A DNA stretch of 64,000 nt from an uncultured Gammaproteobacteria bacterium (GTDB taxonomy: Bacteria; Patescibacteriota; Microgenomatia; Levybacterales; UBA12049). This document shows positions 2,860 to 57,801 of this stretch, piece by piece. The notes beneath the pieces were generated by a model. That model was not told where the DNA came from, searched no databases, and saw only the letters and a list, made by a program, of their open reading frames with translations. Both the position numbers and the translations under genes were made by a program. Where the stretch lies: contig CAZWXQ010000001.1 in assembly GCA_964637955.1 (NCBI GenBank), forward strand, positions 292,849 to 356,848. Reading direction: 5' to 3'. How positions within the stretch are numbered: position 1 is the first letter of the stretch; every line of letters begins with the position of its first letter.

Positions 2860-3888
2860 TTAAGAAGATCTTTTCATTTTCTCGGGAATTAATCTAGAAG
2901 GAGTAACATTTTCCACCCAAATAACTCCATCATATTTATTTGGTAAATCAACTGTTTGAGAATATATTTTTACATCTTGAGGATCAAAAACTGAGCCAAC
3001 TTCAAAAACCGTTTGTGTACCAATATTCCATGATTCAAATAACGGGTTTATTTTTATTCCCCGTAAATCAGTGATAGAAAGTGGTTTTCCTGCTTCTTTA
3101 AAAAGTCTTGCATAAGAATTTTCTTGAGGTTCGGGAAGAGAAAATGTTTCAATATCGCCTGATGTTTCTGCTTTAAAATCTCCTTTTCTTGCAAGGAAGC
3201 TACCACTACCAAAAATCGTAGCAAAGTTTATGTAATTTTCCCCTAACCTTTCTTTAAGATGCGCTCCGGTTGTTTTAAAACCTGGAATATTTAGATTTGC
3301 GATATGGGTATTATGTCCCCAAAATACGAGTTTAGTCTCATCGCCCTTTTCCTCTAAAAATTTAATGCAGTTTTGAGCCATTGCTTCGTCGCGTAGATTG
3401 CTACTTTCTCTTTTTTTATCACCCACAGGTACATCACAACCAAAAAAACTAATTTGATTATCGGGATTTTCGTGATTGTATCTTTTCATCCACAAAATCA
3501 TTTCTAAAACTTCCAGGTTTCTCGTTATCCAGTAGCCAAGATTCTCCAATAGTTCTTCCGGATCTTCTTCCTGGTTATGCACGAAGTCATTTATTTTTTT
3601 TGCTGGTTCTTCCGGTACTTCCATAATTAATCCATTAAAATCTGCCTCTGTTACTAAAAAACGGAAAAGTTTATCTTTCATTTGCGAGAATTCACGGTTG
3701 CCATGAGTTGCTTCCCCTAACCCCACAATTCTTGCTCCTGACACAATTTCTTTAAAAGGATGAAGTTCAGCGGTAATCTCTTCGGGATTTGGTGAAGCTA
3801 TTGGTATTGAATTTTTGGAAAGCCAATTAACTGCTTCGTTTATTTCTGAAGTATTCTCCCGGCTGTCTGTAATTGTGGTTTCATCCAT
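2860..3888 (-). CDS. erythromycin esterase (Ere) family hydrolase homolog
   Basis: 342 aa; VGLGEATHGNREF and VFWGHNTHIA motifs parallel the LGENSHF / HNAHI motifs of Ere-family proteins. Function beyond the family is not inferable. Confidence 0.55.
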   Translation of the reverse strand: MDETTITDSRENTSEINEAVNWLSKNSIPIASPNPEEITAELHPFKEIVSGARIVGLGEATHGNREFSQMKDKLFRFLVTEADFNGLIMEVPEEPAKKINDFVHNQEEDPEELLENLGYWITRNLEVLEMILWMKRYNHENPDNQISFFGCDVPVGDKKRESSNLRDEAMAQNCIKFLEEKGDETKLVFWGHNTHIANLNIPGFKTTGAHLKERLGENYINFATIFGSGSFLARKGDFKAETSGDIETFSLPEPQENSYARLFKEAGKPLSITDLRGIKINPLFESWNIGTQTVFEVGSVFDPQDVKIYSQTVDLPNKYDGVIWVENVTPSRLIPEKMKRSS

Positions 3889-3953
3889 ATAATATTAATA
3901 ATATCAAAATCGGTTCTTGTATTTTTCGTAAATAAGTTTTATTATATTTCGGA

Positions 3954-5045
3954 ATGGCCAAGTCAACAAAAACCTCAGTACCCTCAGGTGAGCAAGTAGA
4001 GCAATCCGCTAAATTAGATGCAGTTCGAATGGCTATGGAGCAAATCGAAAAGCAGTATGGTCGAGGATCTATCATGCGTATGGGCGAAAGTTCTCAAAAG
4101 TTTGACATTCAAGTTATTTCAACAGGGATACTTCCTGTAGATATCGCTCTTGGAGTTGGAGGTTTACCTCGAGGCAGAATTATTGAGATTTATGGGCCCG
4201 AAGCATCAGGAAAAACTACTCTCGCTTTATCTCTTATTGCTGAAGCTCAGAAAACAGGTGGAGTGGCAGCCTTTATAGACGCTGAGCATGCGCTTGATCC
4301 TATTTGGGCTCAAACTGTAGGAGTAAAACTTGATGAACTCCTTATTTCACAACCTGATACAGGAGAGCAAGCGCTTGAGATCGCTGAGAGTTTGATTCGT
4401 TCAGGTGGAGTAGACGTTTTGGTAATTGATTCCGTTGCAGCACTTGTGCCAAGAGCTGAAATTGAAGGAGAAATGGGAGATTCTATGATGGGTCTTCATG
4501 CAAGACTTATGTCTCAGGCTCTAAGAAAACTAACCGGTGTAATTTCCAAAAGTAAAACTGTAGTTATTTTTACGAATCAGTTAAGACAAAAAATCGGAGT
4601 AATGTTTGGAAATCCTGAAACCACTACAGGAGGATTGGCTCTTAAGTTTTATGCATCAGTTAGGCTCGATTCTAGAAAAATAGAAACATTAAAAGAAGGA
4701 GATAAGGTAATTGGGTCAAGGCATAGGATAAAGATAGTTAAGAATAAAGTATCCTCGCCTTTTAGAATTGCAGAGTATGATGTTACGCAGGATGGGATTT
4801 CTAAAACTGGTGCAATTGTAGACGTGGGAGTAGAGATGGGAATAATAAGTAAATCTGGAGCATTTTACAGATATGGTGAAGAAATGCTGGGACAGGGAAA
4901 AGAAGCCACAAAAGAATACCTTAAAGAAAATGAACAGCTTGCAAATAAGATAACTGAAGAGATAATGAAAAAGAATAAATCAGGCGGAACTCCAGTTGAA
5001 GTTGGAGTAGAGGAAGACGAGGACGAAGAAGAAATAGATCAATAA
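3954..5045 (+). CDS. recA: recombinase RecA
   Basis: 363 aa; canonical RecA sequence incl. Walker [13 protein letters not shown] and acidic C-terminal tail. Confidence 0.97.
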
Positions 5046-19290: not shown

Positions 19291-19764
19291 TTATTTAATA
19301 CTATTTATATAATTACTGCTCGAAAATCCTTCCAGCTTTTTGATTTCTATAAGCTTGGCATTCACCTTTTTGCATTGTTCCTTTCTTCTAGAGATGTTTT
19401 TATCACCTTTAGTGAGTGCAATGTAATCAGGCTGAATTTGGACTATAAGTTTATCATAATCTTCGTTTTTTGTCATCCCCGAAAGTGGAATTATGTAGTC
19501 AACTGATGAAAGAGTTTTTAGAAGGGAGGATCTTATGTTCTGCGTGTTTATAGGCCTAGTATTTCCTTTATATTTTTTAATGTTTTCGTCGCTTTCAAGA
19601 AGTAGGAATAATTTATCAGCTATATTTTTTGAGTCCGAGAGAAATTTTATATGACCTGGATGTAAAATATCAAAGCATCCACCTACTAAAACAATGGTTT
19701 GTTTTTTTTGTTTTATGTTTTTTGAAATTTGGGCAGCTTCATCAATTTTTATAATTTTTTTCAC
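19291..19764 (-). CDS. cytidylyltransferase-like nucleotidyltransferase (HldE C-terminal/RfaE-II-like)
   Basis: 157 aa; IVLVGGCFDILHPGHIKFL (HxGH) and KG.TRPI motif as in heptose-1-P adenylyltransferase domain. Confidence 0.7.
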   Translation of the reverse strand: MKKIIKIDEAAQISKNIKQKKQTIVLVGGCFDILHPGHIKFLSDSKNIADKLFLLLESDENIKKYKGNTRPINTQNIRSSLLKTLSSVDYIIPLSGMTKNEDYDKLIVQIQPDYIALTKGDKNISRRKEQCKKVNAKLIEIKKLEGFSSSNYINSIK

Positions 19765-23331: not shown

Positions 23332-24546
23332 ATGACCAATTCTCAAAACGATCACATCTCCAAATTTTATAACTTCCTAGAAGAATCCATTTCAAATTTT
23401 AAATCTCCAAAAATTGTAGAATCAGGGCAAGGTGCATATCTAAAAATAGATGGGATAGATAAGTTAAATTTTTGTTCTAGTCATTATTTGGGATTTCCTC
23501 AAAATCCACGGATTAAAGAAGCTGTCAAAACAATAGTAGATAAGTATGGAATAGCAACTGGTTATAGAACTTTGGCAGGTTCTCACGCTTTACACATAGA
23601 GCTTGAAAGCTCTATTGCTAAATTTAAGGGGACGCAGGATTCTGTTACCTTTTCGAGCGCGTATTTAGCAAACTGTGCAGCAATAACTACAATTATTGGA
23701 AAAGAAGATATTGTGATTTCAGATGAGCTTAATCATGCTTCAATAATTGACGCGGTAAGACTTTCTGGAGTAAAAAATAAGTTAATTTATTCGCATACAG
23801 ATATGGCAAGTCTTGAAGAAAAATTAAAAGAAGCAGATTTTCTTAGGAAGACTCCAAAAAGTAATGGTGATTCTCCTTTGGTTTTAGTAATTACTGATGG
23901 TGTATTTTCTATGGATGGTGACATAGCTCCACTCCCAAAAATATTGAAGTTAGCAAGGGAGTCTGGTGCATTGGTTATGGTCGATGATGCTCACGGTGAA
24001 GGAGTGTTGGGAAAGGGTGGAAGGGGCGTTGTAGATCACTTTGGATTGTTAGGAGAAATAGATATTGAAGTCGGAAGTTTATCCAAAGCATTTTCATCAA
24101 GCGGAGGATTTATCGCAGGAAATAAAAATATTGTCACTTATTACAAGATGAATGCCCGTCAGAGACTTTTTTCAGCATCATTATCTTTGGCTGATAGTGC
24201 AGCAGCACTTGAGGCAATTAAGATTTTAATTGAATCTGATGAGCCAGTTAAAAAACTTTGGGAGAACGTTGAATATCTTAAAAAAGGATTTAGTGATCTA
24301 GGATTTGATACTGGAAAAAGTGAATCTCCAATTACACCAGTTATGATAGGAGATGAAGATAAGGCAAAAGAATTTAGCTTAAAATTATTTGAAGAAGATG
24401 TATATGCAACACCAATTGTTTTTCCAATGGTTGCTAGAGGAAAAGCTAGAATTAGAGTGATTCCATCTGCAGCTCATAGCAAGGAAGACCTTGATAAGGG
24501 AATTGCAGCTTTTGATAAAATCGGAAAGCAGCTTGAAATAATATGA
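23332..24546 (+). CDS. kbl: 2-amino-3-ketobutyrate CoA ligase / glycine C-acetyltransferase (class II PLP aminotransferase, AONS family)
   Basis: 404 aa; PLP-lysine motif GSLSKAF; overlaps the downstream tdh by 4 bp. Confidence 0.75.
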   Translation: MTNSQNDHISKFYNFLEESISNFKSPKIVESGQGAYLKIDGIDKLNFCSSHYLGFPQNPRIKEAVKTIVDKYGIATGYRTLAGSHALHIELESSIAKFKGTQDSVTFSSAYLANCAAITTIIGKEDIVISDELNHASIIDAVRLSGVKNKLIYSHTDMASLEEKLKEADFLRKTPKSNGDSPLVLVITDGVFSMDGDIAPLPKILKLARESGALVMVDDAHGEGVLGKGGRGVVDHFGLLGEIDIEVGSLSKAFSSSGGFIAGNKNIVTYYKMNARQRLFSASLSLADSAAALEAIKILIESDEPVKKLWENVEYLKKGFSDLGFDTGKSESPITPVMIGDEDKAKEFSLKLFEEDVYATPIVFPMVARGKARIRVIPSAAHSKEDLDKGIAAFDKIGKQLEII

Positions 24547-25487
24547 AAAAAATTTTGGTAACTGGAGCATTTGGTTTAGTCGGCACTGAGCTTGTTGACG
24601 CACTTCATAATAAATATGGTAAAGAAAATGTAATTGCAGTTGCTCATAGCAAAAAGCCTGAAAAATTTGAAGGTATTTTGGAGCAAGGAGATGTTACAGA
24701 AAAAGAAAGCATCGTTAAGATAGTTAAAAAACATAAAGTTGATACTATTTATCATCTTGCAGGAATACTTTCAGTGGGAAGTGAAAAAACTCCTTCGTTG
24801 GCATGGGATGTCAATTTAAATGGTTTAAGAAATGTTTTAGATGTAGCAAAAGACGAGAGTCTAAAAGTTTTCTGGCCGAGTTCAATTGCCGCTTTTGGTC
24901 CAACTACCCCAAAGGAAAACACTCCTCAACAAACAGTTCTTGAACCTACAACTATCTATGGCGTTGCTAAAGTTGCTGGAGAGCTTTTATGTCAATATTA
25001 TTTTAATAGATACGGTGTGGATGTTCGTAGTCTTCGCTATCCAGGTCTTAACGGGTGGAAAGCAGAGCCTGGAGATGGGACTACTGAATATGCGATTCAT
25101 ATTTTTTATGGCGCAATAAGAGATGGAAAATATGTATGTCCTCTAAAGCCAGACACAAGGCTCCCGATGATGTATTTAGACGATGCAATCAAGGGTACAA
25201 TAAAGCTTATGGAAGCAGATCCAGAGTCTATTGCTATTAGAACAAGTTATAATTTCGCAGGAATTTCATTTACGCCTGCTGAGCTCGTTGTAGAAATTAA
25301 AAAAATAATGCCCGAGTTTGAAGTTACTTACGTCCCAAATAGCTCTCAGGCGATTGCTGATTCTTGGCCTAAGACGATCGATGATTCTAAGGCGAGAACT
25401 GATTGGGGCTGGAAGCCAGAATTTGATCTTCCTAAAATGACAGAAGCCTTAATGGAAAATTTAAAAAACAAACTTAAATCCTCTTAA
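24543..25487 (+). CDS. tdh: NAD-dependent epimerase/dehydratase-fold protein, likely SDR-type L-threonine 3-dehydrogenase
   Basis: GAFGLVGTEL Rossmann motif, YxxxK; ~314 aa; translationally coupled to kbl as in known tdh-kbl operons. Confidence 0.6.
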   Translation: MKKILVTGAFGLVGTELVDALHNKYGKENVIAVAHSKKPEKFEGILEQGDVTEKESIVKIVKKHKVDTIYHLAGILSVGSEKTPSLAWDVNLNGLRNVLDVAKDESLKVFWPSSIAAFGPTTPKENTPQQTVLEPTTIYGVAKVAGELLCQYYFNRYGVDVRSLRYPGLNGWKAEPGDGTTEYAIHIFYGAIRDGKYVCPLKPDTRLPMMYLDDAIKGTIKLMEADPESIAIRTSYNFAGISFTPAELVVEIKKIMPEFEVTYVPNSSQAIADSWPKTIDDSKARTDWGWKPEFDLPKMTEALMENLKNKLKSS

Positions 25488-25522: not shown

Positions 25523-26512
25523 ATGAAAAAATATAGCTTAGCTGTTTGTGGTGGAACCTTTGACTTGCTTCACTCAGGTCACAAAAGTTTTTTGAAAGAA
25601 ATTTTTGAAAATTCTGAAAGAGCGATAATTGGCTTAACTTCTGATGAATATGCTGCTAAGAAAAATTTGGAAATTCAAAAATTTGATTTTAGAAAAAATG
25701 AGCTGATAAATTATCTAAATACTTTTGCTAAAGACGATTATGAGATTTTAGAAATACATGATGTTTTTGGTCCCTTGTTAGACAAGGATTTGATGGTAGA
25801 AGCTTTATTCGTAACACCTGAAACTAAAAATGGTGCAGAAATTGTAAATAAAAGAAGAAAAGAGTTAAATTTCGTGTCCTTAAAAGTTGAAATCATAGAT
25901 ATGAAAAAGGCTGAAGACGGAGGTTTCATTTCTAGCACTAGAATTAGAAAAGGAGAAATTAATAGAGATGGACACGTTTACATAAAAAAAGAATGGTCAG
26001 CTAAAACTTTTCGATTGCCACAAACTCTTAGGAATGAATTGCAAAAACCTTTTGGCAAAATCTTACATAAAGTTCCTGATAAATTGGAAGGATCAAAAGT
26101 TATAACAATTGGAGACATAACAACACAAGAATTCAATAAAAAAAGTATAAATCAAATTCTTTCAATTGTAGATTTTCAAGTTCAGAGAGAAGAAAAATTT
26201 ACTGAAATTTCCGAATTGGTTTTTAATGGTAAAACTGAGATTGAAAAGGTTAAAAATTTAGCTGGGGAGATTAATGGAAAGATATTTGGAAAGATTAAAA
26301 ATTCATTAGAATCAAAGAATAGAAAAATAATTCTCATAGATGGAGAGGAAGACTTAATCGTAATTCCTGCAATTTTAATATCTCCATTAGGATTCAGGAT
26401 TTATTATGGTCAACCAAATGTGGGACTTGTTGAAATAATTGTTAAAGAAGAAATTAAAGAAAAAATTTATAAGTTATTAAATAAGTTTGAAGTATATTTT
26501 TTTGACAAATAA
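25523..26512 (+). CDS. bifunctional archaeal-type phosphopantetheine adenylyltransferase / DUF359 GTP-dependent dephospho-CoA kinase
   Basis: N-terminal GGTFDLLHSGH (HxGH nucleotidyltransferase); C-terminal half with GDITT and IDGEEDL motifs of the DUF359 family. Confidence 0.65.
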   Translation: MKKYSLAVCGGTFDLLHSGHKSFLKEIFENSERAIIGLTSDEYAAKKNLEIQKFDFRKNELINYLNTFAKDDYEILEIHDVFGPLLDKDLMVEALFVTPETKNGAEIVNKRRKELNFVSLKVEIIDMKKAEDGGFISSTRIRKGEINRDGHVYIKKEWSAKTFRLPQTLRNELQKPFGKILHKVPDKLEGSKVITIGDITTQEFNKKSINQILSIVDFQVQREEKFTEISELVFNGKTEIEKVKNLAGEINGKIFGKIKNSLESKNRKIILIDGEEDLIVIPAILISPLGFRIYYGQPNVGLVEIIVKEEIKEKIYKLLNKFEVYFFDK

Positions 26513-26627
26513 ATTTTATTTTGAGATAATGCATTTTATGTTTAAGTTCGAAGTTTCTAAAAAGTCTAAGAAGAACCTCTCTTTGAGGGGCTTTGTCTTG
26601 GCGTAAAGTTTCAGAAACTTAAAAGAC

Positions 26628-26654
26628 AAACCCCTCTATAGGAGGGGTTTTTTA
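26628..26654 (+). terminator. intrinsic terminator
   Basis: AAACCCCTC-tatag-GAGGGGTTT followed by TTTT; a second weaker hairpin (CCTCtctttGAGG) about 45 nt upstream. Confidence 0.6.
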
Positions 26655-26695
26655 GTGGTTAAAAATTTATTAGTCATTATTCAAGAAATATTATT

Positions 26696-27547
26696 ATGAG
26701 TGAATTTATTAATTATTCAAATGCAGATTTTAGTGCTAGCCTAAATGATAGTTCGATTGGTCAGGTTTTTGCTGGAGAACTGAATGTTCATGCTCAGATT
26801 TCAATTGCAAATATTGAAACGCTTGGATATTGTCCAGATTTGAATCGGATAACTGAGGCTATACATAGAGAACCCGGAACTGTTTTGGATTCATCACTTG
26901 AGTCAGTAGTAAATAGTTTTATGCAAATGAAAGCAGTCACTTTAATGGATGGAGCTGAAGCTGTTGGTTATGTTAGGTATACACCTCTTTTAGATGGAGA
27001 TAAAAAAAGACAATTAGGTCTTAGGGATGATTTTCCAGATATTGACGAGACAGGAACAGCGATCATTTTACGCGAATATAGAGGACATCATTATTATCCA
27101 AGACTTCGAACTGCTCTTTTATCTTTAAGAGCACAGGATATGAAAGATGGAAAAGTTTTAATTCTAGGTACAACTAAAAGTCCAAAAATTATTGAATCGC
27201 TTGATGATTCAAATGCGTTGGGTCTGGAATTTGACGTAGTTGATTTTATGGAGGTTGAAAATGTCTCAGCTCACACTTGTGTTTGTGAAGGAGATTTTGG
27301 AAATGGATTCCAGAATGGTATAAACTGTCCAAATAGAGCTACGAATGAAGATTTGATTCAAATAGCTAGGCATGATTGGCAAGGACTCCAAAAAAGAGGT
27401 AGAATGATTGATGGGAAAATTCCCTGTACACTGTACTTATCAAACGCTCGTTTAGCTAGATCTTTGAATGATGAGGTACGAGAGCAATTTGGATCTTTAG
27501 ATAACTTGATAAAAGCGCTTAAGGATGTGGGACATTATGAAAAATAA
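26696..27547 (+). CDS. hypothetical protein (283 aa, soluble)
   Basis: Clean ORF with its own terminator upstream; no recognisable motifs; overlaps the downstream M20 peptidase start by 23 bp. Confidence 0.5.
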   Translation: MSEFINYSNADFSASLNDSSIGQVFAGELNVHAQISIANIETLGYCPDLNRITEAIHREPGTVLDSSLESVVNSFMQMKAVTLMDGAEAVGYVRYTPLLDGDKKRQLGLRDDFPDIDETGTAIILREYRGHHYYPRLRTALLSLRAQDMKDGKVLILGTTKSPKIIESLDDSNALGLEFDVVDFMEVENVSAHTCVCEGDFGNGFQNGINCPNRATNEDLIQIARHDWQGLQKRGRMIDGKIPCTLYLSNARLARSLNDEVREQFGSLDNLIKALKDVGHYEK

Positions 27548-28622: not shown

Positions 28623-30866
28623 ATGTTTTGGATAGATAAAATTTCAGAAGAAATAATAAAAAGTGGAAATTATAAGCCGTACTGGGTGGACGATATGAAA
28701 ACTCCAAGCGGTTTTGCTCATGTGGGGTCTCTTATGGGTCCTGTAATTCACAGCATGGTTTATAAGAGTCTCAAGGATAAAGGACAAGAAGCTAAATTTA
28801 CTTTTATAATTAATGATTTTGATCCTGCTGATGATCTTCTTCCTGAAATTCGAGGCACACATGAAGCGGAGCTTGGAAAACCGTTAAAGCTTGCAAAGTC
28901 ACCAGATCCCAAATTTGAAAGTTTTGCAGATTTATTTGGAAATGATTTTATAACTGCAATAAAAAATCTTGGAGTGGATGCGCAAATTTTATCTTCATGG
29001 GAAATGTATCACGAGGGAAAATTTGATGACGTAATAAGACTTGCTCTCGACAATGCTGAAAAAATTCAAGATATTTATCAAAGAGTTTCGGGTAGTCAAA
29101 AAAAACAATCAGGATGGCTACCTTTTCAAGTAATTTGTGAGAATTGTGGAAAGCTAGGTACTACCAAGGTATATGCTTGGGACGGTGATAGAGTTTCATA
29201 TAAATGTGAACCTGATTTAGTTGTTTGGGCAAAAGGTTGCGGACATGAAGGAAAAATTTCTCCATTTGGTGGAACTGGAAAACTTCCTTGGAAAGTTGAC
29301 TGGCCTGCTCATTGGAAGGTGATTGGAGTGACCATAGAAGGAGCTGGAAAAGACCATGCTTCAAAAGGTGGATCTTATGATATTGCGATGACAATCTGTC
29401 GCGAGGTATTTGATTTTGATCCTCCATTCAAAATGCCATATGAGTTCATCTTAATAGGAGGTAGAAAAATGTCTTCGTCTAAAGGATTAGGCTTAAAGGC
29501 TCATGATTTGGTAGATATTCTTCCACCAGAAGTAGCAAGATTTTTATATGCAAGAAATGGAATAAAATCTCAAACGAATTTTGATCCAGACGATAAAAAT
29601 GCGATCCCTGTTCTTTTTGATGATTATCAAAAAGCAGCGGAAGCATATTTTAGTAAAACAGATGAGGATTTAGGTCGTGCGTTTGAAATTTCACAAGTTG
29701 ATGAAATAAAAAGGCCACCTTCTGTGAGGTTTAGCGTGCTTGCTCAGTGGGTCCAAATGCCAAATATGGAACAGAAGATTAAGGAGGAAGATCTTGAGCA
29801 GTGGGCTAAGTATGCAAAGGTTTGGGTGGAAAGATTTGCTCCGGAAGATATGAAATTTGAAGTTAAAAAAGAATTACCTGAAAATTTAAATTTAAATGAA
29901 AAACAAAAAGAATTTCTTATAAAACTTAATGAAAAAATTGGTTCTTATAAATCCGGAGAAGATTTTCAAATTGAAATTTATGAATTAGGAAAAGAGCTTA
30001 AGCTTGATGGAAAAGAAGCATTTCAGGCAATTTATCTAAGTCTTTTAGGAAAAGATCACGGGCCAAAAGCTGGTTGGTTAATTCTTTCTTTAGATCCAGG
30101 ATTTGTAAAAAATAGATTTGAAGAAGCTTCAAAAGAATCCATAAATTCAAATAATAAATCTACTATTATAAAATTAAATAAACCAGAAATTTTTTCAATT
30201 GATGCAAATTTAGCAGAAAAATTTCCTAGTCTTTCAGTGGGAATTGCAATAATTAAAGGTGTTTCTATAAAAGAAAAAGACGAGGAGTTGGAAAAAGAAA
30301 AAGAGGAATTATTAAAATCATTTGAGAATTTGACTACAGAAGGGTTGGGGGCATTCCCAGAAACAATGTCTTACAGGAGGCTTTATAAAGAAATGGGAGT
30401 TGATTGGCATTCAAGGCGCCCTAGTCCTGAAGCATTGCTTCGTCGTGTCGCTTTAAAAAAAGGCTTGTATTCTATAAATACAGCAGTTGATGCATATAAT
30501 CTTGTTGTAATGAAAAATAGAGTTTCAGTTGGCGCATTTGATTTAGATAAAATTGAATTTCCTACGCTTTTAAGACTAGCAAAAAATGATGAAGAAATAC
30601 ATCTTCTTGGAGATGATGATTCTACAAGATATACAGAAAAAGAAATAGCATACTTTGATAAAAATGGTGGATATAATATGGATTTTAATTTTAGAGATGC
30701 TAAGAGAACTGCTGTAGGAATGGAAACTAAAAATATTTATTTAAATGTAGATGGAATTTATGATGTTACGCCAGAAAAAGTTTTAGAAGTTTTAGAAGAA
30801 GCAGTAGAAAAAATATTAAAATATTGTGGTGGAGAAATAGTATTTCTCGGAGTAGAGAAAGCATGA
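28623..30866 (+). CDS. lysS: class I lysyl-tRNA synthetase with C-terminal B3/4-like domain
   Basis: N-terminal about 520 aa aligns by eye with archaeal class I LysRS (PSGFAHVGS, WKVDWPAHW, GAGKDHASKGGSYD, KMSSSKG). C-terminal about 220 aa resembles the B3/4 tRNA-binding/editing fold. Confidence 0.85.
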   Translation: MFWIDKISEEIIKSGNYKPYWVDDMKTPSGFAHVGSLMGPVIHSMVYKSLKDKGQEAKFTFIINDFDPADDLLPEIRGTHEAELGKPLKLAKSPDPKFESFADLFGNDFITAIKNLGVDAQILSSWEMYHEGKFDDVIRLALDNAEKIQDIYQRVSGSQKKQSGWLPFQVICENCGKLGTTKVYAWDGDRVSYKCEPDLVVWAKGCGHEGKISPFGGTGKLPWKVDWPAHWKVIGVTIEGAGKDHASKGGSYDIAMTICREVFDFDPPFKMPYEFILIGGRKMSSSKGLGLKAHDLVDILPPEVARFLYARNGIKSQTNFDPDDKNAIPVLFDDYQKAAEAYFSKTDEDLGRAFEISQVDEIKRPPSVRFSVLAQWVQMPNMEQKIKEEDLEQWAKYAKVWVERFAPEDMKFEVKKELPENLNLNEKQKEFLIKLNEKIGSYKSGEDFQIEIYELGKELKLDGKEAFQAIYLSLLGKDHGPKAGWLILSLDPGFVKNRFEEASKESINSNNKSTIIKLNKPEIFSIDANLAEKFPSLSVGIAIIKGVSIKEKDEELEKEKEELLKSFENLTTEGLGAFPETMSYRRLYKEMGVDWHSRRPSPEALLRRVALKKGLYSINTAVDAYNLVVMKNRVSVGAFDLDKIEFPTLLRLAKNDEEIHLLGDDDSTRYTEKEIAYFDKNGGYNMDFNFRDAKRTAVGMETKNIYLNVDGIYDVTPEKVLEVLEEAVEKILKYCGGEIVFLGVEKA

Positions 30867-36734: not shown

Positions 36735-37496
36735 ATGGATTTATTAGAAAGAAACATCAAATCTACAGATAATCATATCTCAATTTTAACCTCAGATACG
36801 AAGCATCCAAAATTATGTATTATTGAAATACACGGCGGTATAGAAGGAGACAAATGGGATGTTGCTGAGGAGAGTAAGGATTTAGTAAATTATTGTTTGA
36901 AAAATGAAATTTTATATATTTCAGTAGATCTATCAAATAATGGAACACAAGTAAATCAATCCTTGAATGAGGTTTTATTTAGTAAAAGAGAAGAAGACTT
37001 AAATTCAGTAATTTCTTTTGTTAAGGACGAATATAAATGTCCAGTAATCTTAATTGGAACTAGTCTTGGTGGTTTAATTGCAATTAATACTGCTTCAAAA
37101 AATACAGAAAAAATAATTGGCTTAGTTATTAATTGTGGTGTAGTAAATCCTGAGGATTTAATAAAGAGAATAGTAGTGGAAGAAGATTTCAATCAATGGC
37201 ACACAAGCGATATGTTAAATGTTTTTAACATAAACCTGCCTTATTCTTTTTTTGAAGATATTAAAAATTTAAATACTCCTGATAAGATTAAATCTTTAAA
37301 TATTCCAATTTTGTGGTTTCATGGTGAAGAAGATGAGCTTGTTCCTATTGAGCAAGTAGAAGATTTATCTTTAGAAAATAAGTCAATAAAGTTAGTAAAA
37401 GTTGAAAATGGAAAACATAGATTTGGAGTAAGTATGCAGCCAGGAAAATGGGAAGAGCGATTAGAAAATTTTATTCAGATGATATTAAATTCTTAA
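36735..37496 (+). CDS. alpha/beta-hydrolase fold protein
   Basis: 253 aa; nucleophile elbow GTSLGG, Asp and His (GKHRF) consistent with a catalytic triad. Confidence 0.65.
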   Translation: MDLLERNIKSTDNHISILTSDTKHPKLCIIEIHGGIEGDKWDVAEESKDLVNYCLKNEILYISVDLSNNGTQVNQSLNEVLFSKREEDLNSVISFVKDEYKCPVILIGTSLGGLIAINTASKNTEKIIGLVINCGVVNPEDLIKRIVVEEDFNQWHTSDMLNVFNINLPYSFFEDIKNLNTPDKIKSLNIPILWFHGEEDELVPIEQVEDLSLENKSIKLVKVENGKHRFGVSMQPGKWEERLENFIQMILNS

Positions 37497-37953
37497 TTTT
37501 ATCTACTGTTTCTTGTATTGTTAAGTTCGAATTATCAATAATCTTAATGTCATTTAGTTTTGCTATCATATTATTTATTACTGTAGATTCATTTATTCCT
37601 ACCCTCTCATAGTCGTCATTAATGTGTCTTTGATTTAATATTTCTGGTTTAGTAATTAGAGCTATGGTTTTTATATTTTCGTTTCCATTGAATAACTTTG
37701 TCTGTTCTTCAAGATCTTCATTTCTTGCATATACAAATGAAACAAATATTTGCGAATATCCTTCTTCAATATAGTTATTTGCTAGACTTGCTATGTTTTT
37801 ATACCTTAGATGTTTTTGTAGCGATCTATCAGAAGGATTTGTAGCTAATGCAAAATCACCTTCAATATGTGCACTATTATTAGTGCTTTCAAGAAGTAGT
37901 TTGGCAGTTTTGCTTTTTCCTGTGCCAGGTGCGCCTGTAATAATAATTATCAT
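37471..37953 (-). CDS. P-loop NTPase / small-molecule kinase-like (AAA_33-type)
   Basis: 160 aa; N-terminal MIIIITGAPGTGKSKTAK Walker A; overlaps the convergent hydrolase gene 3' end by 26 bp. Confidence 0.55.
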   Translation of the reverse strand: MIIIITGAPGTGKSKTAKLLLESTNNSAHIEGDFALATNPSDRSLQKHLRYKNIASLANNYIEEGYSQIFVSFVYARNEDLEEQTKLFNGNENIKTIALITKPEILNQRHINDDYERVGINESTVINNMIAKLNDIKIIDNSNLTIQETVDKIKNLISSE

Positions 37954-47324: not shown

Positions 47325-47993
47325 GTGTTTTATTTATTTATCTTCATAAGTGAATTCTTAATTCTTCTTTTTCTTTCTAGAATACTAAGTAGATCGATTT
47401 CTGCAGCTATTTATAAAATTACAAATAATGCTTATGGTTCTCTGAGGATTTTTCATTTTATCTTTTTGCCAGGAGTTATAGTTCACGAGTTGGCGCATTT
47501 AATAAGCGCAGAAGTTATGTTTGTAAAAACCCATGGACTTAGTTTGACACCAGTTAGAAATGGTGATCAGCTCACTATGGGAAGTGTCCAAATTGAAAAG
47601 ACAGATCCTATAAGGCGTGCGATAATAGGATTTGCTCCGGTTTTGGTAGGAATTGTTTTAATTGGAGCCGCGACTTTTTATCTTCTTTCAGATAAATCAC
47701 CTTTTGGTGACATTATAAATTATTTCCTTATTTTCATAATAGTTTTCGAAATTGGAAATACTATGTTTTCAAGCAGGAGAGACATTGAAGGCACCGTGGA
47801 GCTTTTAATAGTTTCTGTTTTAGTCATTGGATTACTTTTTGTTTTAGGAATAAGTTTTCAGCCTGTAATTGATTTTATAAACTCATCAAGTGTTCAATCC
47901 ATTTTGCTAAACGGAATTAAACTCCTTTGGATTCCAATTGCTGCAGATATTGTTATTATTTTACTTACTAAGTTTCTTGTACTCAGAAAATAA
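47325..47993 (+). CDS. polytopic membrane protein with HExxH motif (putative intramembrane metallopeptidase-like)
   Basis: FLPGVIVHELAHLISAEV within a predicted TM helix; 222 aa. Confidence 0.35.
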   Translation: MFYLFIFISEFLILLFLSRILSRSISAAIYKITNNAYGSLRIFHFIFLPGVIVHELAHLISAEVMFVKTHGLSLTPVRNGDQLTMGSVQIEKTDPIRRAIIGFAPVLVGIVLIGAATFYLLSDKSPFGDIINYFLIFIIVFEIGNTMFSSRRDIEGTVELLIVSVLVIGLLFVLGISFQPVIDFINSSSVQSILLNGIKLLWIPIAADIVIILLTKFLVLRK

Positions 47994-49713
47994 ATTTATA
48001 GATATAAGTATTATTGTATTTCTTAACTAATTTTAATTTTGAATTACTATTTAACTTTTCAATTATCTTTCCACCCTTATCAATTTTTTTATTATTAATA
48101 ATGAAGCCATCATTATGGAGCATATCGTATTGATCTTTATGAACAATAATATAGTCCAATCCTAATGATCTTAATTGAGTAATTGTTTTATCCGATGGAA
48201 ATGTTTCATCAAGGTTGTAAGCTAATTTTTGCCAAGGTTCTGGAGTGAATCCTCCACCACCATTCATGGTTCTTCTATAATTTATCGTTGAATAATAAAG
48301 TCTCCATAGTTCAATTGTCGCATAATCAGTCATGTTCCAATTATATATAGGCATCTCAAGATAAATAGAGTCTTTTGGAGTCGTAGAGAGGAAGTGGTGT
48401 TCTGGAGGGAAATCTTTTACTGTTGGCATTGGGATTAGTTTCATGGGGAATCTTAGTTCTGCAACGCAACCTAAGATTAATAGCGCATAAATTATAAACT
48501 TTTTACTTTTATCCTGTCCTTCAAGTATTTTTGTAAATACTATGCTTATTACTATTGCAGCTCCAATCATGAAAAGCATTTCCCATCTTGCTGAGTTTCG
48601 AAAGCCCTGAAAACCTGGAATCAGATAGTAAAAAAGTGCATATGGCAAAGGAATTATGGAGGGATTATGAATTGTTTGACGACCCATATGCAAAACAGGT
48701 CCAAGGCTTAATATAAAGCCTAGAATTGAAATTGATAGAAATGAATTTAGATTTACATTTTTTTTCTTAAGATTTTTAAATGCATAGATAAAACTAAAAA
48801 TAACTAAGATTGAAAATACTGCCCCTAAAAATCCTGGCTTAAATTCATTATTTTGTGAAAACCTATTTATCGGTAAAGAGTTTAAAGTAGTATCGAGTTT
48901 TGAAAAATCAGAAGAATAAAGCATATCTTCTGGTTGGATAGCAAAATGAACAGTATCTTTTAAAGTTCTTACATAACCAAATTCCTTTGAGATTCGAAAA
49001 TAAGGAATCATAATTGGAATAATTGCCGACATGAAAAGTATAAAAATTAGAATATTCTTTTTTGAAACTGCTTTTAAAGTTTCTTTTTTATCAAACAGCC
49101 AGTTAAAGAAAAATATTATTAAATAAGAAATGAGAATAAAATAACCAGCGAGGAAATTGTTATACGTTTGAAGTACTAAAAACATAAAAGAAATTATGAG
49201 GTGTTTAGTTTTTTTACTCTTCATGAAATTGATGAAAAATAAAAGAGAAAGAGGAGTAAGTACTATAAAAAGCATCTGGAGGTGGGCATAGAAACTAAGA
49301 TATGCTGGGGAAAAAATTACTAAAATTCCAGCTAAGATTGATGCGAAGAAATCCTTTGTAATTCTGTAAGCCAATAAATAAAGTGAGAAGCCTGTTAAAA
49401 CTATTCCGGAAATTACGATAAAGTTATTTGTAATTATTGGCTCTTTAGTAATAAGATATGGAATCATAGAAAAAAGAGCGGTAATTATATTTGGATCAGA
49501 TGAAGCAGGTCCTATTTGATAGGGATAAAAAATATTTGTTGTAAAAATATTTTGGATATTACCAGTTAGTACTGATTGAATAATCCATGTATGAATCCAA
49601 GTGTAGATAAAATTATCTCCGTAACCCGTCGTTAGAGTAGTCAGATGAAATGCCCACGGAAAAGTAATAAAAATTCCAGAGATTAAAAATATTAAAAAAG
49701 CTAATAGTTTCAC
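47983..49713 (-). CDS. large polytopic membrane protein, GT-C-fold glycosyltransferase-like (ArnT/PMT/YfhO-like)
   Basis: 576 aa, more than 10 TM helices with C-terminal soluble domain; assignment by architecture only. Confidence 0.4.
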   Translation of the reverse strand: MKLLAFLIFLISGIFITFPWAFHLTTLTTGYGDNFIYTWIHTWIIQSVLTGNIQNIFTTNIFYPYQIGPASSDPNIITALFSMIPYLITKEPIITNNFIVISGIVLTGFSLYLLAYRITKDFFASILAGILVIFSPAYLSFYAHLQMLFIVLTPLSLLFFINFMKSKKTKHLIISFMFLVLQTYNNFLAGYFILISYLIIFFFNWLFDKKETLKAVSKKNILIFILFMSAIIPIMIPYFRISKEFGYVRTLKDTVHFAIQPEDMLYSSDFSKLDTTLNSLPINRFSQNNEFKPGFLGAVFSILVIFSFIYAFKNLKKKNVNLNSFLSISILGFILSLGPVLHMGRQTIHNPSIIPLPYALFYYLIPGFQGFRNSARWEMLFMIGAAIVISIVFTKILEGQDKSKKFIIYALLILGCVAELRFPMKLIPMPTVKDFPPEHHFLSTTPKDSIYLEMPIYNWNMTDYATIELWRLYYSTINYRRTMNGGGGFTPEPWQKLAYNLDETFPSDKTITQLRSLGLDYIIVHKDQYDMLHNDGFIINNKKIDKGGKIIEKLNSNSKLKLVKKYNNTYIYKFIF

Positions 49714-49757
49714 AAATTTTTCTCATTCTAGCATATGATGAGGGGTTTGCAATTGAT

Positions 49758-50852
49758 TTAGCTTGAGTATTTTTGATAAAGATCATTAATCATTCTTAAT
49801 TCATTGTAATTTCGTGTCTGATCTTTAAGAGTTACGTTTTCAAGCTGGTCTGTTACTGCTTGAGATTCTATGAAGTTATCGAGTACGCTTTTTTTCCATC
49901 CAGCTTCAATCTCTCCTATACTTAATCCAGAAATTTCTTCCATACTTTGAATAAAATTTTGTCGATTTACATTTCCGACCCATCTCTTGAAATTGTTAAC
50001 CCCAAATGTATCTATAAAGTACTTTATAAAAGATCCACCTTTTAAATAATCTGAATCATTTGGGGAGGTATCGTATCTGTCTAAAATATTATCTGTTTCG
50101 CTCGACAAGCTAAAGCAATTTGCTATTGAAAAATCAGTACGTCCTTTTTGGTTTATCATTTTTATTAGTTGGTCATCGCTTATCTTTTTCCATTCGCCCA
50201 TGAAGTCGGTGAATTTATCTCTTGCATGATTGATCATGTGGAGCCTTAAGTAGTCATGAGCATCTTTTCCTGACCCAAAATGATCAAAAAATGTAGCTAA
50301 GCCTTCATGTAGAAATGGAATGAAATAGGCTTCCTTGGAGAATAATGCAGGAGCAAGAATTCCATGTCCAATTGCCTCATGCAAACTTGTTGTATAGGCC
50401 GCAGGAGTCAATTCTGAATCAGGTTTTTTTCTAGTGGTTGTTTTACTGAAGCGAGCATGACTCCAGCTGCTCGAAGTAGGGCTTTCGCGGCCATACGTGT
50501 GTAAGCCATTAATTAATCCATTTCGGTCTCGTCTGGAAACTCGAACTACCTGGAAAGTGTCAGGCATTTCAATTTGGAATAAATCTTTAGCTATTTTTAA
50601 TCCTCCTTCAAGATAATATGCCATGTCTTCCGGACCTTGAAGCGTTGGAGTATCAAAATCCTCGTAGATTTTATTATCCTGAAAAATTACTATAAAGTGG
50701 GGTGACTGCGCATAATGAATATCTGGATGTTTTATGCGATCAAGATCTAATCCGTCAATAATTTTCTGTCTCTCTGGTATGTGGGTTGGTTTTACAGATA
50801 CTTCAGGTGAACCCTCGTAGGTTACATTTTTTTGTGCATCACCAGATTCCAT
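49758..50852 (-). CDS. hypothetical protein (364 aa)
   Basis: Clean ORF; HEAIGHG segment is not a canonical HExxH. Confidence 0.45.
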   Translation of the reverse strand: MESGDAQKNVTYEGSPEVSVKPTHIPERQKIIDGLDLDRIKHPDIHYAQSPHFIVIFQDNKIYEDFDTPTLQGPEDMAYYLEGGLKIAKDLFQIEMPDTFQVVRVSRRDRNGLINGLHTYGRESPTSSSWSHARFSKTTTRKKPDSELTPAAYTTSLHEAIGHGILAPALFSKEAYFIPFLHEGLATFFDHFGSGKDAHDYLRLHMINHARDKFTDFMGEWKKISDDQLIKMINQKGRTDFSIANCFSLSSETDNILDRYDTSPNDSDYLKGGSFIKYFIDTFGVNNFKRWVGNVNRQNFIQSMEEISGLSIGEIEAGWKKSVLDNFIESQAVTDQLENVTLKDQTRNYNELRMINDLYQKYSS

Positions 50853-50967: not shown

Positions 50968-52650
50968 ATGTTACTGCCCGATAGTCAGATTTTGGAGCTT
51001 CTAAAACAGTCTGGTTTGGTTGATCAGAAGACAATGCAGGATGTTGTGGTTTCTGCCGCTAATGCAAGAATTCCTCTACAAGAAGCTGTGATTGAAAAAA
51101 ATGTTATTACAGACGATAAACTTGGTCAGCTTATCGCAAACTTCATAAAGTATCCTTTTGTAGTTCTGGATAAAAGTCAGATTCCCGAGGAAGTGTTTCG
51201 AATAGTTCCTGAAAGAATCGCTAGAAAGCATAGGATTGTCGCTTTTGCCAAAGATGCTACTGGAGTAAAAATGGCAATGGCTGATCCTGTCCACATAAAA
51301 CTTGCTGATTCTATTTCTAAAAAAACCCAAAGAAAAGTAACTGTGTTTATGGCTACAGAGAGAAACATAGAGAACGTGCTCCAGCTTTATAGAAAAAATC
51401 TCCAAACAACTTTTGATGATCTTTTGCAGGAAGAAATTACTAGAACAAATACTACCATGGATGATGCCCCAATCATTAAGATTGTTGATCTACTTATCGC
51501 TTATGCATATCGCGAAAAGGCATCAGATATTCATATTGAGCCTGAAGAAAAAAATTCATTGGTTAGATTCCGAACAGATGGAATTTTACATGACGTGCTT
51601 TATGTAGATAAAAAATTGCACGATAGAATTATTACTAGAATTAAAGTTTTGTCGCGTCTTAGAACAGATGAGCACATGAGTGCTCAGGATGGAAAACTCC
51701 GAACTATAGTTGATGAAGACAGTTTGGATATTCGTGTTTCCATAATTCCAGTTACTGAAGGAGAGAAAGGGGTTCTTAGACTTTTATCATCGCAATTTAG
51801 GCAGTATTCTCTTCATGATCTTGGGATGAATGATAAAGATCTTATGAAAGTAAATAATGGAGTAAATAAATCTTATGGCATGATTCTTTCAACCGGTCCA
51901 ACTGGTTCTGGAAAGACAACTTCAATTTATTCGATTTTAAATATCCTAAATACTAGAGATAGGAATATTACGACCATTGAGGACCCCGTTGAGTACAGGA
52001 TGAAGGGCGTAAATCAGATTCAGGTAAATGAAAAAGCAAATCTTACTTTTGCGAATGGATTAAGGTCTGTTCTTCGTCAGGATCCCAATGTTATTTTTGT
52101 GGGTGAAATCAGAGATGGTGAAACAGCAGGGATTGCGGTAAATGCTGCGCTCACGGGCCATTTGGTGGTTTCGACAGTTCATACAAATGATGCAGCGACC
52201 ACGCTTCCTAGATTAGTGGACATGAAAGTAGAGCCATTTCTTGTGGCATCAACTATTAATGTAATTATCGCTCAAAGACTTGTGAGAAAAATTTGTGAGT
52301 CCTGCAAGATTCCAGTTGTTATAAAAAGATCTGAGTTAATTAAGGAAATTCCTGAAGTTACTATCGCGAAGCATTTTGGTCTTGGGGAGGATCTAAAAGG
52401 ATTTGAAGGCAAGGGTTGTAAGATTTGTCATGCTACTGGTTATTCTGGTCGTATTGGTATTTTTGAAATAATTTCTATGTCTGAAAAAATAAAATCCCTT
52501 ATCGCTCAAAAGAAAGACTCAAATGAAATAAAAAAAGAAGCAATAGCAGAAGGAATGACTACAATGCTTGAAGATGGAATGGATAAAGCAGCAAAAGGCT
52601 TAACAACGGTTAAGGAAGTGTTTAGAGCTACAAAAGCTGAAGCAACTTAA
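50968..52650 (+). CDS. pilB: type IV pilus assembly ATPase PilB (GspE family)
   Basis: N-terminal GSPII_E_N-like domain, Walker A GPTGSGKTT, Asp/His boxes, tetracysteine motif CESCK...CKICHATG. Confidence 0.92.
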   Translation: MLLPDSQILELLKQSGLVDQKTMQDVVVSAANARIPLQEAVIEKNVITDDKLGQLIANFIKYPFVVLDKSQIPEEVFRIVPERIARKHRIVAFAKDATGVKMAMADPVHIKLADSISKKTQRKVTVFMATERNIENVLQLYRKNLQTTFDDLLQEEITRTNTTMDDAPIIKIVDLLIAYAYREKASDIHIEPEEKNSLVRFRTDGILHDVLYVDKKLHDRIITRIKVLSRLRTDEHMSAQDGKLRTIVDEDSLDIRVSIIPVTEGEKGVLRLLSSQFRQYSLHDLGMNDKDLMKVNNGVNKSYGMILSTGPTGSGKTTSIYSILNILNTRDRNITTIEDPVEYRMKGVNQIQVNEKANLTFANGLRSVLRQDPNVIFVGEIRDGETAGIAVNAALTGHLVVSTVHTNDAATTLPRLVDMKVEPFLVASTINVIIAQRLVRKICESCKIPVVIKRSELIKEIPEVTIAKHFGLGEDLKGFEGKGCKICHATGYSGRIGIFEIISMSEKIKSLIAQKKDSNEIKKEAIAEGMTTMLEDGMDKAAKGLTTVKEVFRATKAEAT

Positions 52651-52653
52651 AAT

Positions 52654-53709
52654 ATGTTTAAGAGGTCAAAAATTACTTTAAAAAACTCAGAGAAATTAAA
52701 TTTACTTAGTAATTTATCTACAATGATTTCTTCTGGTATTCCTATTCTTGAAACAGTTGATTCTCTGCTCGAAGATTCAAAAGGCGGCACACAAAAAGTT
52801 CTCCAAATAATACGCGAAGATATGCTTCAAGGAAACCATCTTTACACTTCGTTTACAAAGTTTCCTGATATTTTCGATAAAGTTACAGTAAATGTAATAA
52901 GAGCTTCAGAGGAGGCTGGAACGCTTGATGTTACTTTGAAAGATATTAGAGATCAGCTCGAAAAAGAAATTGAATTCCAGGATAAGCTTAAGTCCGCGAT
53001 GATTTATCCTATTTTTATTGTAATTGTATTCTTTGGCGTTATGGTGATGATGCTCGTTGTAGTAATGCCTAAAATTTCGACAGTATTCTCAAGACTTAAA
53101 GTAGACCTACCTCTCCCAACTCGCATTATGATAGCAATGTCAGATATAGTTACGCAGTATACAATTCCTCTATTGGCTGGAACCTTGGTGTTGGTATTTT
53201 TCATGATAATTCTTTATCGAGCACAGAAAAAAAGAATATTAGGCATGGTTTATAAATTGCCATTGATTTCAACATTGGTTAAGGAAATTGATTTAGCACA
53301 TTTTTCGAGAAGTATGTTCTTGCTTTTATCTTCAGGAATTACTATTACAAACGCTCTTGAATTATCTCAGGAGGTTGTAATGAGAAAAGATATTGCCAAA
53401 GCGATTGCTCACGCAAAAGAAACTGTTCTTTCGGGAAAAAATTTATCTCAAGGATTTAGAGACGAAAAAAAGATTTTTTCTGGAATAATTATAAAACTAG
53501 TAGAAGCAGGTGAAAAAACAGGAACTTTAGACAAGTCTTTGGCTGATGTATCGAAGCAGATGGATTATAAAGTTAGCAACACGCTCACGACACTAACCGC
53601 AATGCTTGAGCCGGTAATGCTTGTTGCTGTAGGAATTTTAGTGGGTGGAATGATGCTAGCAATAATCGCTCCTATTTATGGATTAATTGGAAAAGTTGGA
53701 GCAAGGTAA
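52654..53709 (+). CDS. pilC: type IV pilus platform protein PilC (GspF family)
   Basis: 351 aa; duplicated GspF domains, 3 TM helices. Confidence 0.88.
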   Translation: MFKRSKITLKNSEKLNLLSNLSTMISSGIPILETVDSLLEDSKGGTQKVLQIIREDMLQGNHLYTSFTKFPDIFDKVTVNVIRASEEAGTLDVTLKDIRDQLEKEIEFQDKLKSAMIYPIFIVIVFFGVMVMMLVVVMPKISTVFSRLKVDLPLPTRIMIAMSDIVTQYTIPLLAGTLVLVFFMIILYRAQKKRILGMVYKLPLISTLVKEIDLAHFSRSMFLLLSSGITITNALELSQEVVMRKDIAKAIAHAKETVLSGKNLSQGFRDEKKIFSGIIIKLVEAGEKTGTLDKSLADVSKQMDYKVSNTLTTLTAMLEPVMLVAVGILVGGMMLAIIAPIYGLIGKVGAR

Positions 53710-57271: not shown

Positions 57272-57279
57272 GATTTTTT

Positions 57280-57801
57280 ATGAAAATTAATTTTTTGACA
57301 CATATAAGAATTAGAAGAAAATCGTCGGGTTTTACATTAATTGAGCTTCTTATTTATATGGGATTATTTTCAATATTAACTACGATTACTCTTCAATTAT
57401 TTGCGACAATTTTTGATGCTGAGACTGAGGCGGAAGCAGTTTCCTCGATAACAAGTGACAGTAAATTTATTATGAATAGATTTACATATGATCTTAATCG
57501 GTCTTCAAGTGTTACGACGCCTGTTAGCTTAGGGACTCAAAGTGCCACACTAACTATGGTTATAAATTCACAAAATCTAAGATATAGTCTAGACAGTGGA
57601 AATCTTAAATTAGATAACCTCACAACTGGCACTTCTGATAATTTAAATACAAATGAGACTACGGTTTCAAACTTATCTTTCATAAGACTTGATGGGGGAG
57701 GAAATGATGCTGTTCAAATTACATTTACTCTTACGTCAGTCGCAACAGATACTTCAGGTAAGCAAATTAAAACGTATACCACATCAGGAGGAATTAGATA
57801 A
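57280..57801 (+). CDS. minor pilin (prepilin N-terminal domain)
   Basis: SSG|FTLIELLIYMGLFSIL. Confidence 0.7.
   Translation: MKINFLTHIRIRRKSSGFTLIELLIYMGLFSILTTITLQLFATIFDAETEAEAVSSITSDSKFIMNRFTYDLNRSSSVTTPVSLGTQSATLTMVINSQNLRYSLDSGNLKLDNLTTGTSDNLNTNETTVSNLSFIRLDGGGNDAVQITFTLTSVATDTSGKQIKTYTTSGGIR

Follow-up and report, generated by a model that had tools for sequence, protein, structure and literature searches.

We found that a gene at positions 25523..26512 on the + strand of a 64-kb stretch of contig CAZWXQ010000001.1 (positions 292,849 to 356,848; the whole stretch is called the window below) encodes a phosphopantetheine adenylyltransferase (PPAT) domain followed, in the same open reading frame (ORF), by a DUF359 domain of the archaeal dephospho-CoA kinase (DPCK; CoA, coenzyme A) type. 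The source lineage of this fusion gene is a tiny-genome bacterium of the candidate phyla radiation (CPR), a member of Levybacteria. The explanation that we regard as highly probable is that a single polypeptide performs the last two steps of CoA biosynthesis as a housekeeping enzyme, vertically inherited in Levybacteria and related Microgenomates (CPR), and that its gene is probably co-transcribed with the upstream genes kbl and tdh. In the predicted mechanism, the N-terminal domain would transfer AMP from ATP to 4'-phosphopantetheine through its HxGH and ISSTRIR motifs, giving dephospho-CoA, and the C-terminal DUF359 domain would phosphorylate the 3'-OH of dephospho-CoA through an Asp triad (D198/D217/D277) to yield CoA. 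The phosphate donor of the DUF359 half is probably GTP, by analogy with Thermococcus kodakarensis TK1697.

Domain architecture of the fusion protein

In the ORF list of the window, the gene is complete and uninterrupted, starting with ATG and ending, stop codon included, after 329 amino acids, and the encoded protein has matches to both domains in Pfam and NCBIfam. NCBI and Logan assemblies contain a 100% identical protein (P0001), encoded on a contig whose length reaches 360,851 bp. The original prediction, which had been made from the letters alone, gave identical coordinates, and the motifs quoted in it were located at residues 9–20 (CGGTFDLLHSGH), 197–201 (GDITT) and 272–278 (IDGEEDL). PPAT and DUF359 thus occur in one ORF with PPAT at the N-terminus.

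The N-terminal domain (residues 1–155; 25523..25987, +) was found to be a PPAT of the archaeal/eukaryotic type, as had been proposed. In the Pfam scan, PF01467 (CTP_transf_like) matched residues 8–143 with 52.7 bits against a gathering cutoff of 21 (E 6.6e-14), and in the NCBIfam scan the PPAT subfamily model NF001985 matched residues 2–153 on profile positions 2–153 of 157 with 150.8 bits against a cutoff of 104. The Archaeoglobus fulgidus PPAT structure (PDB 3do8) matched residues 8–152 in a sequence search (E 2.7e-18). The HxGH nucleotidyltransferase motif (H17-S-G-H20; 25571..25582, +) lies within GGTFDLLHSGHK, and the second nucleotidyltransferase motif, ISSTRIR (residues 136–142; 25928..25948, +), aligns to ISSTRIK of 3do8. 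Both motif regions are strongly conserved: G11, T12, F13, D14, L15, H17, G19, H20 and K21, as well as S137, T139, R140, I141 and R142, do not vary among 19 homologues that are 43–84% identical. No bacterial CoaD model was among the NCBIfam matches of the fusion protein, an E. coli CoaD probe reached only E 0.25 against the window in tblastn, and bacterial CoaD/PPAT structures matched the predicted structure at the fold level only, with 12–17% identity (Foldseek).

Similarly, the assignment of the C-terminal domain (residues 162–326; 26006..26500, +) to the DUF359/arCOG04076 family of archaeal-type DPCKs, also part of the original prediction, is agreed upon by profile, structure and residues. 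PF04019 (DUF359) matched residues 200–323 over profile positions 1–126 of 126, with 96.5 bits against a gathering cutoff of 25 (E 1.2e-27), so that both domains score above their thresholds in the profile scan that had been suggested as a check. The T. kodakarensis GTP-dependent DPCK structure (PDB 8jvc) matched residues 162–324 (E 5.4e-20) in a sequence search, and the pairwise alignment with TK1697 showed 34% identity over 173 residues. TK1697, a DUF359/arCOG04076 protein, has been characterized as a GTP-dependent DPCK (Shimosaka et al. 2019, PMC6650551), and its D48A and D67A substitutions, and more weakly D125A, impair function in vivo (PMC6650551). In our pairwise alignments, in which the copy of TK1697 used (P0274) begins two residues after the numbering of that paper, the catalytic residues D48 and D67 correspond to D198 (26114..26116, +) and D217 (26171..26173, +), and D125 corresponds to D277 of the GEED motif (26351..26353, +). 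All three residues are invariant in the same 19 homologues, and the GD, VD and GEED contexts around them are invariant across the family. PF01121 and other CoaE models gave no match in the fusion protein in the Pfam and NCBIfam scans, and neither did an E. coli CoaE probe in tblastn.

PPAT homology stops at about residue 152 and DPCK homology starts at residues 162–163; the linker (VYIKKEWSA, about residues 153–161; 25979..26005, +) is therefore only ~8 residues long. One of its residues, W158, is invariant in the 19-homologue alignment. An AlphaFold2 model built from this 19-sequence alignment had a mean pLDDT of 90.7 and a pTM of 0.85. When it was compared with PDB using Foldseek, the first matches were the TK1697 structures 8jvc and 8jvg (E 4e-15 to 3e-14, TM 0.78–0.82 normalized to target length), followed by 3do8 (E 4e-9, TM 0.81 normalized to target length). 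In this predicted model, the DUF359 half has the same fold as the TK1697 crystal structure.

Distribution and origin of the fusion

The fusion is not rare, and it is the norm in Microgenomates-type CPR. In a search among 5.8 billion proteins, all 120 best homologues carried both Pfam domains and were 323–350 aa long; where names were given, these were “pantetheine-phosphate adenylyltransferase” or “cytidyltransferase-like”, from Candidatus Levybacteria/Levyibacteriota or Patescibacteria. An exhaustive HMMER search with the DPCK half alone, run on representatives of clusters at 50% identity, retrieved 2,094 of them at E≤1e-3, of which 1,021 reached E≤1e-10. Among the best 150 DUF359 representatives, 133 were fusions with a length of 300 aa or more in which DUF359 occupied residues ~160–330, and the shorter ones were N-truncated fragments or miscalled genes. 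The original prediction had considered such a protein unusual in a bacterial genome. This holds for bacteria generally, but not for Microgenomates-type CPR with their hundreds of homologues.

In GTDB species representatives, 505 stretches coding for a relative of the query were found by scanning, and the best 80 were kept. Both domains were in one ORF in 65 of these 80 loci, 57 of which were bacterial; informative titles among the latter were Levyibacteriota, Gottesmanbacteria, Woesebacteria, Microgenomates, one Paceibacterota and “Patescibacteria group”. The remaining eight (L048, L049, L054, L056, L057, L059, L068 and L079) were archaeal, belonging to Poseidoniales/marine group II (MGII), Thalassarchaeaceae and Thermoplasmata, with the same domain order as in the window. 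Other archaeal loci (Nitrososphaerales, Methanobacteriaceae, Hadarchaeales and others) matched the PPAT half only, with 41–47% identity. Besides, many GTDB records (L003–L006, L010, L015, L017 and others, such as CAZMGC01, CAYORA01 and CAZAZU01) carry “uncultured Gammaproteobacteria bacterium” or “uncultured Pseudomonadales bacterium” titles (TPA_asm). Since these records have the Levybacteria gene order, with neighbors 60–86% identical, such titles are placeholder mislabels that are unfit for taxonomy.

One candidate for a standalone DUF359 protein in CPR, either pre-fusion or the product of fission, was Candidatus Curtissbacteria OGD92762.1 (P0266), a “DUF359 domain-containing protein” of 186 aa (L083, about 3500–4561 of MFBX01000024.1). 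This candidate was ruled out: its annotated start is an internal Met of a truncated deposited gene model, and the upstream 470 bp are in frame without a stop codon and encode a full PPAT domain (ACGGTFDYLHRGH...), so that the standalone state is an artefact. A further PPAT-containing frame was observed in a DPANN archaeon, Candidatus Aenigmatarchaeota (L066, 5275–6990 of JBHIDR010000009.1). It is an open frame of 572 aa with PPAT at residues 243–394, preceded by ~240 residues of no assigned domain, in which the DUF359 profile gives no match; it may represent a different PPAT fusion.

The origin of the fusion was examined with per-domain trees, for which a crude method was used (neighbor-joining with Kimura distances and 100 bootstrap replicates). 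Deep nodes of both trees had less than 50% bootstrap, and the MGII fusions formed one clade in each (99–100%). The DPCK tree has a 100% split that separates the Levybacteria, Gottesmanbacteria and Woesebacteria sequences from a group formed by the MGII fusions and the standalone enzymes of archaea. Another 100% split, in the PPAT tree, groups Levybacteria and Gottesmanbacteria not with the MGII fusions but with Nitrososphaerales and Methanobacteria, whose PPATs are standalone. Together, these splits argue against a recent transfer of the fused gene from MGII to CPR, and because of the split in the DPCK tree a single fusion event shared by CPR and MGII is not demonstrated. The trees are compatible with an ancient transfer as well as with independent fusions and cannot distinguish between the two. 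Besides, two bacterial fusions, L055 (Patescibacteria SKW302) and L065 (bacterium E14_metabat.bin.3), were paired at 85% bootstrap in the DPCK tree, where they lay on the archaeal side of the 100% split; in the PPAT tree they shared a side with Woesebacteria and the MGII fusions. From this placement there is a hint that a further, separate acquisition took place in CPR.

With regard to composition, the fusion gene has a GC content of 28.1%, compared with a gene mean of 34.7% (sd 3.1), and its GC content at third codon positions (19.4%) is within the range of the genome. This range, together with the conserved synteny described below, gives no support for recent horizontal transfer.

Genomic neighborhood

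The window (GC 33.5%) is a typical CPR segment that contains RecA, RecX, RNase Y, SecA, GreA, UppS, type IV pilus genes, two-component systems and class I LysRS. The gene order NT2-VanW-SBP-GreA-Kbl-(Tdh)-fusion-...-LysRS-Ham1-SerRS-SecA was found in roughly 24 Levybacteria loci; kbl was upstream of the fusion gene in 16 of them, and tdh was syntenic in 8 related loci. Because this order recurs across loci, the fusion gene is considered native to Levybacteria and vertically inherited there. The CPR context that had been suspected from the sequence of the window was borne out by this gene order, which is common with named Candidatus Levybacteria/Levyibacteriota metagenome-assembled genomes, and the class I LysRS that had been named alongside it was found at 28623..30866 (PF01921, 295 bits).

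Immediately upstream of the fusion gene, and in the same orientation, are kbl (2-amino-3-ketobutyrate CoA ligase/glycine C-acetyltransferase; 23332..24546, +) and tdh (L-threonine 3-dehydrogenase of the short-chain dehydrogenase/reductase type; 24543..25487, +). Kbl matched PDB KBL structures with E 1e-82 to 1e-95 and NF005394 with 422 bits, under the equivalog cutoff of 460, and Tdh matched PDB L-threonine dehydrogenases with E 1e-107 to 1e-125. The start of tdh overlaps the stop of kbl, and its end is 35 bp before the fusion gene. Kbl splits 2-amino-3-ketobutyrate into glycine and acetyl-CoA, a reaction that requires free CoA; the neighborhood therefore fits a CoA-related role of the fusion. 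As an observation in its own right, the kbl-tdh pair (threonine to glycine and acetyl-CoA) represents a CoA-dependent catabolic module in a genome that was expected to be metabolically sparse.

In the consensus scan, two terminator-like hairpins (26576–26590 and 26633–26647, the latter followed by a T run; 26576..26653, +) were found downstream of the fusion gene. The scan gave no + strand terminator-like site between 22700 and 26576, the hairpin at 26576 being the first after greA, and a joint transcript of kbl-tdh-PPAT/DPCK probably ends at these hairpins (26576–26653).

Further features lie in the 183-bp spacer that follows the fusion gene (26502–26695). It contains a near-consensus promoter (TTGACA-17-TG-GATAAT, 11/12 matches), a 25-codon ORF (MHFMFKFEVSKKSKKNLSLRGFVLA) and three hairpins; the middle hairpin (GGGGCTTTGTCTT...AAGACAAACCCC) has bases in common with the first and with the terminator hairpin (CCCCTCtataGGAGGGG then T6). 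Judged by sequence, this layout would be attenuator-like and is located upstream of an orphan gene (26696..27547, +); no Rfam match was obtained for the spacer. The orphan ORF (283 aa) had no Pfam or NCBIfam match and was found only in two contigs of the same organism (L001 and L002), not in the other Levybacteria loci.

Other CoA-pathway genes

We also looked for other genes of CoA biosynthesis and use. No CoaE, CoaD, CoaBC, PanK, AcpS or ACP domain was detected in ORFs of at least 120 aa in the 64-kb window, and tblastn with E. coli CoaD, CoaE, AcpS and AcpP probes gave nothing convincing in the window and nothing in 0.92 Mb of fetched related loci. The canonical coaD and coaE genes, whose presence the original prediction had advised checking, were thus not found within the window. 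Two candidates were considered and rejected. An ORF with a CTP_transf_like domain (19291..19764, −) was examined as a canonical CoaD, but its best model was rfaE domain II-like (99 bits) and the PPAT model gave 44 bits against the cutoff of 104. This rfaE-domain-II/TagD-like cytidylyltransferase recurs ~4–6 kb upstream of the fusion gene, on the opposite strand, in 10 Levybacteria loci. Similarly, a P-loop ORF of 160 aa (37471..37953, −) had a weak tblastn match to the N-terminus of CoaE, but it was AAA_18 and Gar/GrdA-like and had no CoaE domain.

Alternative explanations

Several observations weigh against a bifunctional CoA-forming enzyme with kbl-tdh as its operon partners. The Thermococcales PPAT equivalog NF041124 matched the N-terminal domain at the right place with 86.9 bits against a cutoff of 290, and the Thermococcales GTP-dependent DPCK equivalog NF041125 matched the C-terminal domain at the right place with 85.1 bits against a cutoff of 300. 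Since these cutoffs are missed by far, orthology rests on family-level models and conserved residues. NF041124 is lineage-specific, and its shortfall weakens strict orthology and not membership in the PPAT family. In addition, the absence of other CoA genes covers the 64-kb window, and the contig measures at least 360 kb; the scan for terminators and promoters was consensus-based, with promoter-like sites no commoner than in shuffled sequence, and the enzyme activities are predicted from sequence, for this fusion as for every CPR member of the family. The GTP preference of the kinase half is likewise presumed, by analogy.

These points bear on three alternatives. The fusion could be a paralogue with another role, for example in making another adenylylated and phosphorylated cofactor, with CoA produced by canonical CoaD and CoaE encoded elsewhere. 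The limited part of the contig that was covered and the unreached equivalog-level models both leave room for this, and the second small nucleotidyltransferase in the window suggests that the superfamily is used more than once here. We consider it unlikely, because the PPAT subfamily model scored above its curated cutoff, the family is near-universal and syntenic in Levybacteria, neither the window nor the 0.9 Mb of related loci yielded a CoaD/CoaE-like gene, and the fusion of consecutive pathway enzymes is strong functional evidence, which predicted the archaeal DPCK correctly. Another explanation is that only the PPAT half is catalytic and that the DUF359 half is a degenerate regulatory or oligomerization module. 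The homologues bear only the name “pantetheine-phosphate adenylyltransferase” at NCBI, a catalytic PPAT half alone is what the annotation of NCBI and JGI implies, and the DUF359 half has a lower GC content (26.5%) and is more divergent between lineages. Such degeneration would be very unlikely given that the three catalytic Asp residues and their contexts do not vary across the family, that the DUF359 match spans the entire Pfam profile and that the model superposes on TK1697 with the TM scores reported above; the gap in annotation is explained by the DPCK equivalog, which is Thermococcales-specific with its cutoff of 300 bits.

It is also conceivable that the C-terminal domain is a kinase or pyrophosphokinase acting on another substrate, which would couple PPAT to a different reaction. 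An HHpred relation of arCOG04076 to thiamine pyrophosphokinases has been described (Shimosaka et al., PMC6650551), and the residues compared for our DPCK assignment were those of the Asp triad. The best sequence and fold matches were DPCKs, however, with no thiamine pyrophosphokinase among the PDB sequence or Foldseek matches and no Pfam match to that family in the fusion protein, and dephospho-CoA is the expected substrate because the domain is fused to the enzyme that would produce it. A different substrate therefore seems extremely unlikely, and a polypeptide that carries out both final steps of CoA biosynthesis is the reading that we prefer.

Comparison with known systems

In eukaryotic CoA synthase, COASY, a single polypeptide has PPAT followed by DPCK, the PPAT is of the archaeal/eukaryotic type, and CoA can be made from imported 4'-phosphopantetheine. 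The window protein resembles COASY in its one-chain PPAT and DPCK arrangement and in the type of PPAT. In contrast, the COASY kinase is of the P-loop CoaE type, whereas the kinase half of the window protein has an unrelated DUF359 Rossmann-like fold and no PF01121 match. In function the window protein would therefore parallel COASY, and it consists of two archaeal-type domains, the kinase halves being analogues and not homologues.

The fusion architecture itself has already been published for archaea. PPAT-arCOG04076 fusions of uncultured archaea gave the lead through which archaeal DPCK was identified (Shimosaka, Makarova, Koonin & Atomi 2019, mBio, PMC6650551), and PSI-BLAST in that study retrieved only archaeal arCOG04076 homologues. 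The archaeal fusions (for example AIF21550.1 of group II/III euryarchaeota; PMC6650551) consist of the same two families in the same order, have ~345 aa and the same inferred function, but the host of the window protein is bacterial (CPR/Levybacteria) and identity is only 27–33%. Our literature searches found no paper describing a PPAT-DUF359 fusion in CPR/Patescibacteria. Compared with TK1697 (PDB 8jvc, 8jvf and 8jvg), the C-terminal half shares the fold, the D48/D67/D125 residues and 34% identity, which extends across the entire domain; TK1697, with its 175–177 aa, stands alone, whereas the kinase half of the window protein is joined to PPAT by the short linker. The N-terminal half has the HxGH and ISSTRIR motifs and the fold in common with archaeal PPATs (COG1019; P. 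abyssi/TK2128 type; 3do8), and the standalone PPATs of Nitrososphaerales and Methanobacteriaceae are 41–47% identical to it. Archaeal PPATs occur as proteins of their own, and some archaea have them as fusions with an NTP phosphatase (NF002250). A further parallel is provided by those mycoplasmas, reduced-genome and host-dependent bacteria, in which PPAT and DPCK are the only CoA steps kept; they have been proposed to scavenge 4'-phosphopantetheine (PMC8721197). Unlike the single fusion of the window, mycoplasmas have separate bacterial-type CoaD and CoaE genes.

Other features of the window

The class I LysRS downstream of the fusion gene (28623–30866, +; 747 aa) has PF01921 at residues 2–359 and a C-terminal B3_4 domain (PF03483) at residues 584–736, which is the fold of the editing domain of the PheRS beta subunit. 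In related Levybacteria loci the LysRS frame, measured from stop to stop, is only ~507 aa, with Ham1 directly after it; the B3_4 extension therefore seems organism-specific. A type IV pilus cluster was also present, with a PilB-like gene (50968–52650), a PilC-like gene (52654–53709) and three N_methyl pseudopilins. Large ORFs without Pfam matches (575, 363, 993, 123, 278, 351 and 214 aa) were found at 47983–50852 (−), 54290–57271 (+), 57801–58990 (+) and 59569–61267 (−), those at 54290–58990 lying in or beside the pilus cluster.

Implications for CPR metabolism

The gene in the window belongs, as a well-conserved member, to a CPR family that is large and under-annotated. Because the DPCK model of NCBI is Thermococcales-specific, hundreds of CPR proteins are labeled as PPAT only, and such labels would lead metabolic reconstructions of CPR to wrongly score the last step of CoA synthesis as missing. 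The distribution also takes the archaeal GTP-dependent DPCK family beyond archaea, at odds with what its 2019 description implied (PMC6650551).

A broader proposal is that Levybacteria and related Microgenomates have no CoA-pathway enzyme other than the fusion and depend on 4'-phosphopantetheine scavenged from a host or neighbor, and that the CPR fusion is a third convergent “CoA synthase”, independent of those of MGII and of COASY, whose archaeal-type domains were acquired across domains of life. We offer this combination tentatively and regard it as rather doubtful. If the upstream pathway is indeed absent, 4'-phosphopantetheine would be a hypothesized metabolite exchanged in CPR symbioses, and if the proposal as a whole is true, it would be one concrete metabolite tying CPR cells to their partners. 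The finding does not overturn current understanding; its practical value lies in corrected metabolic reconstructions of CPR and in the suggested dependency of these bacteria on 4'-phosphopantetheine.

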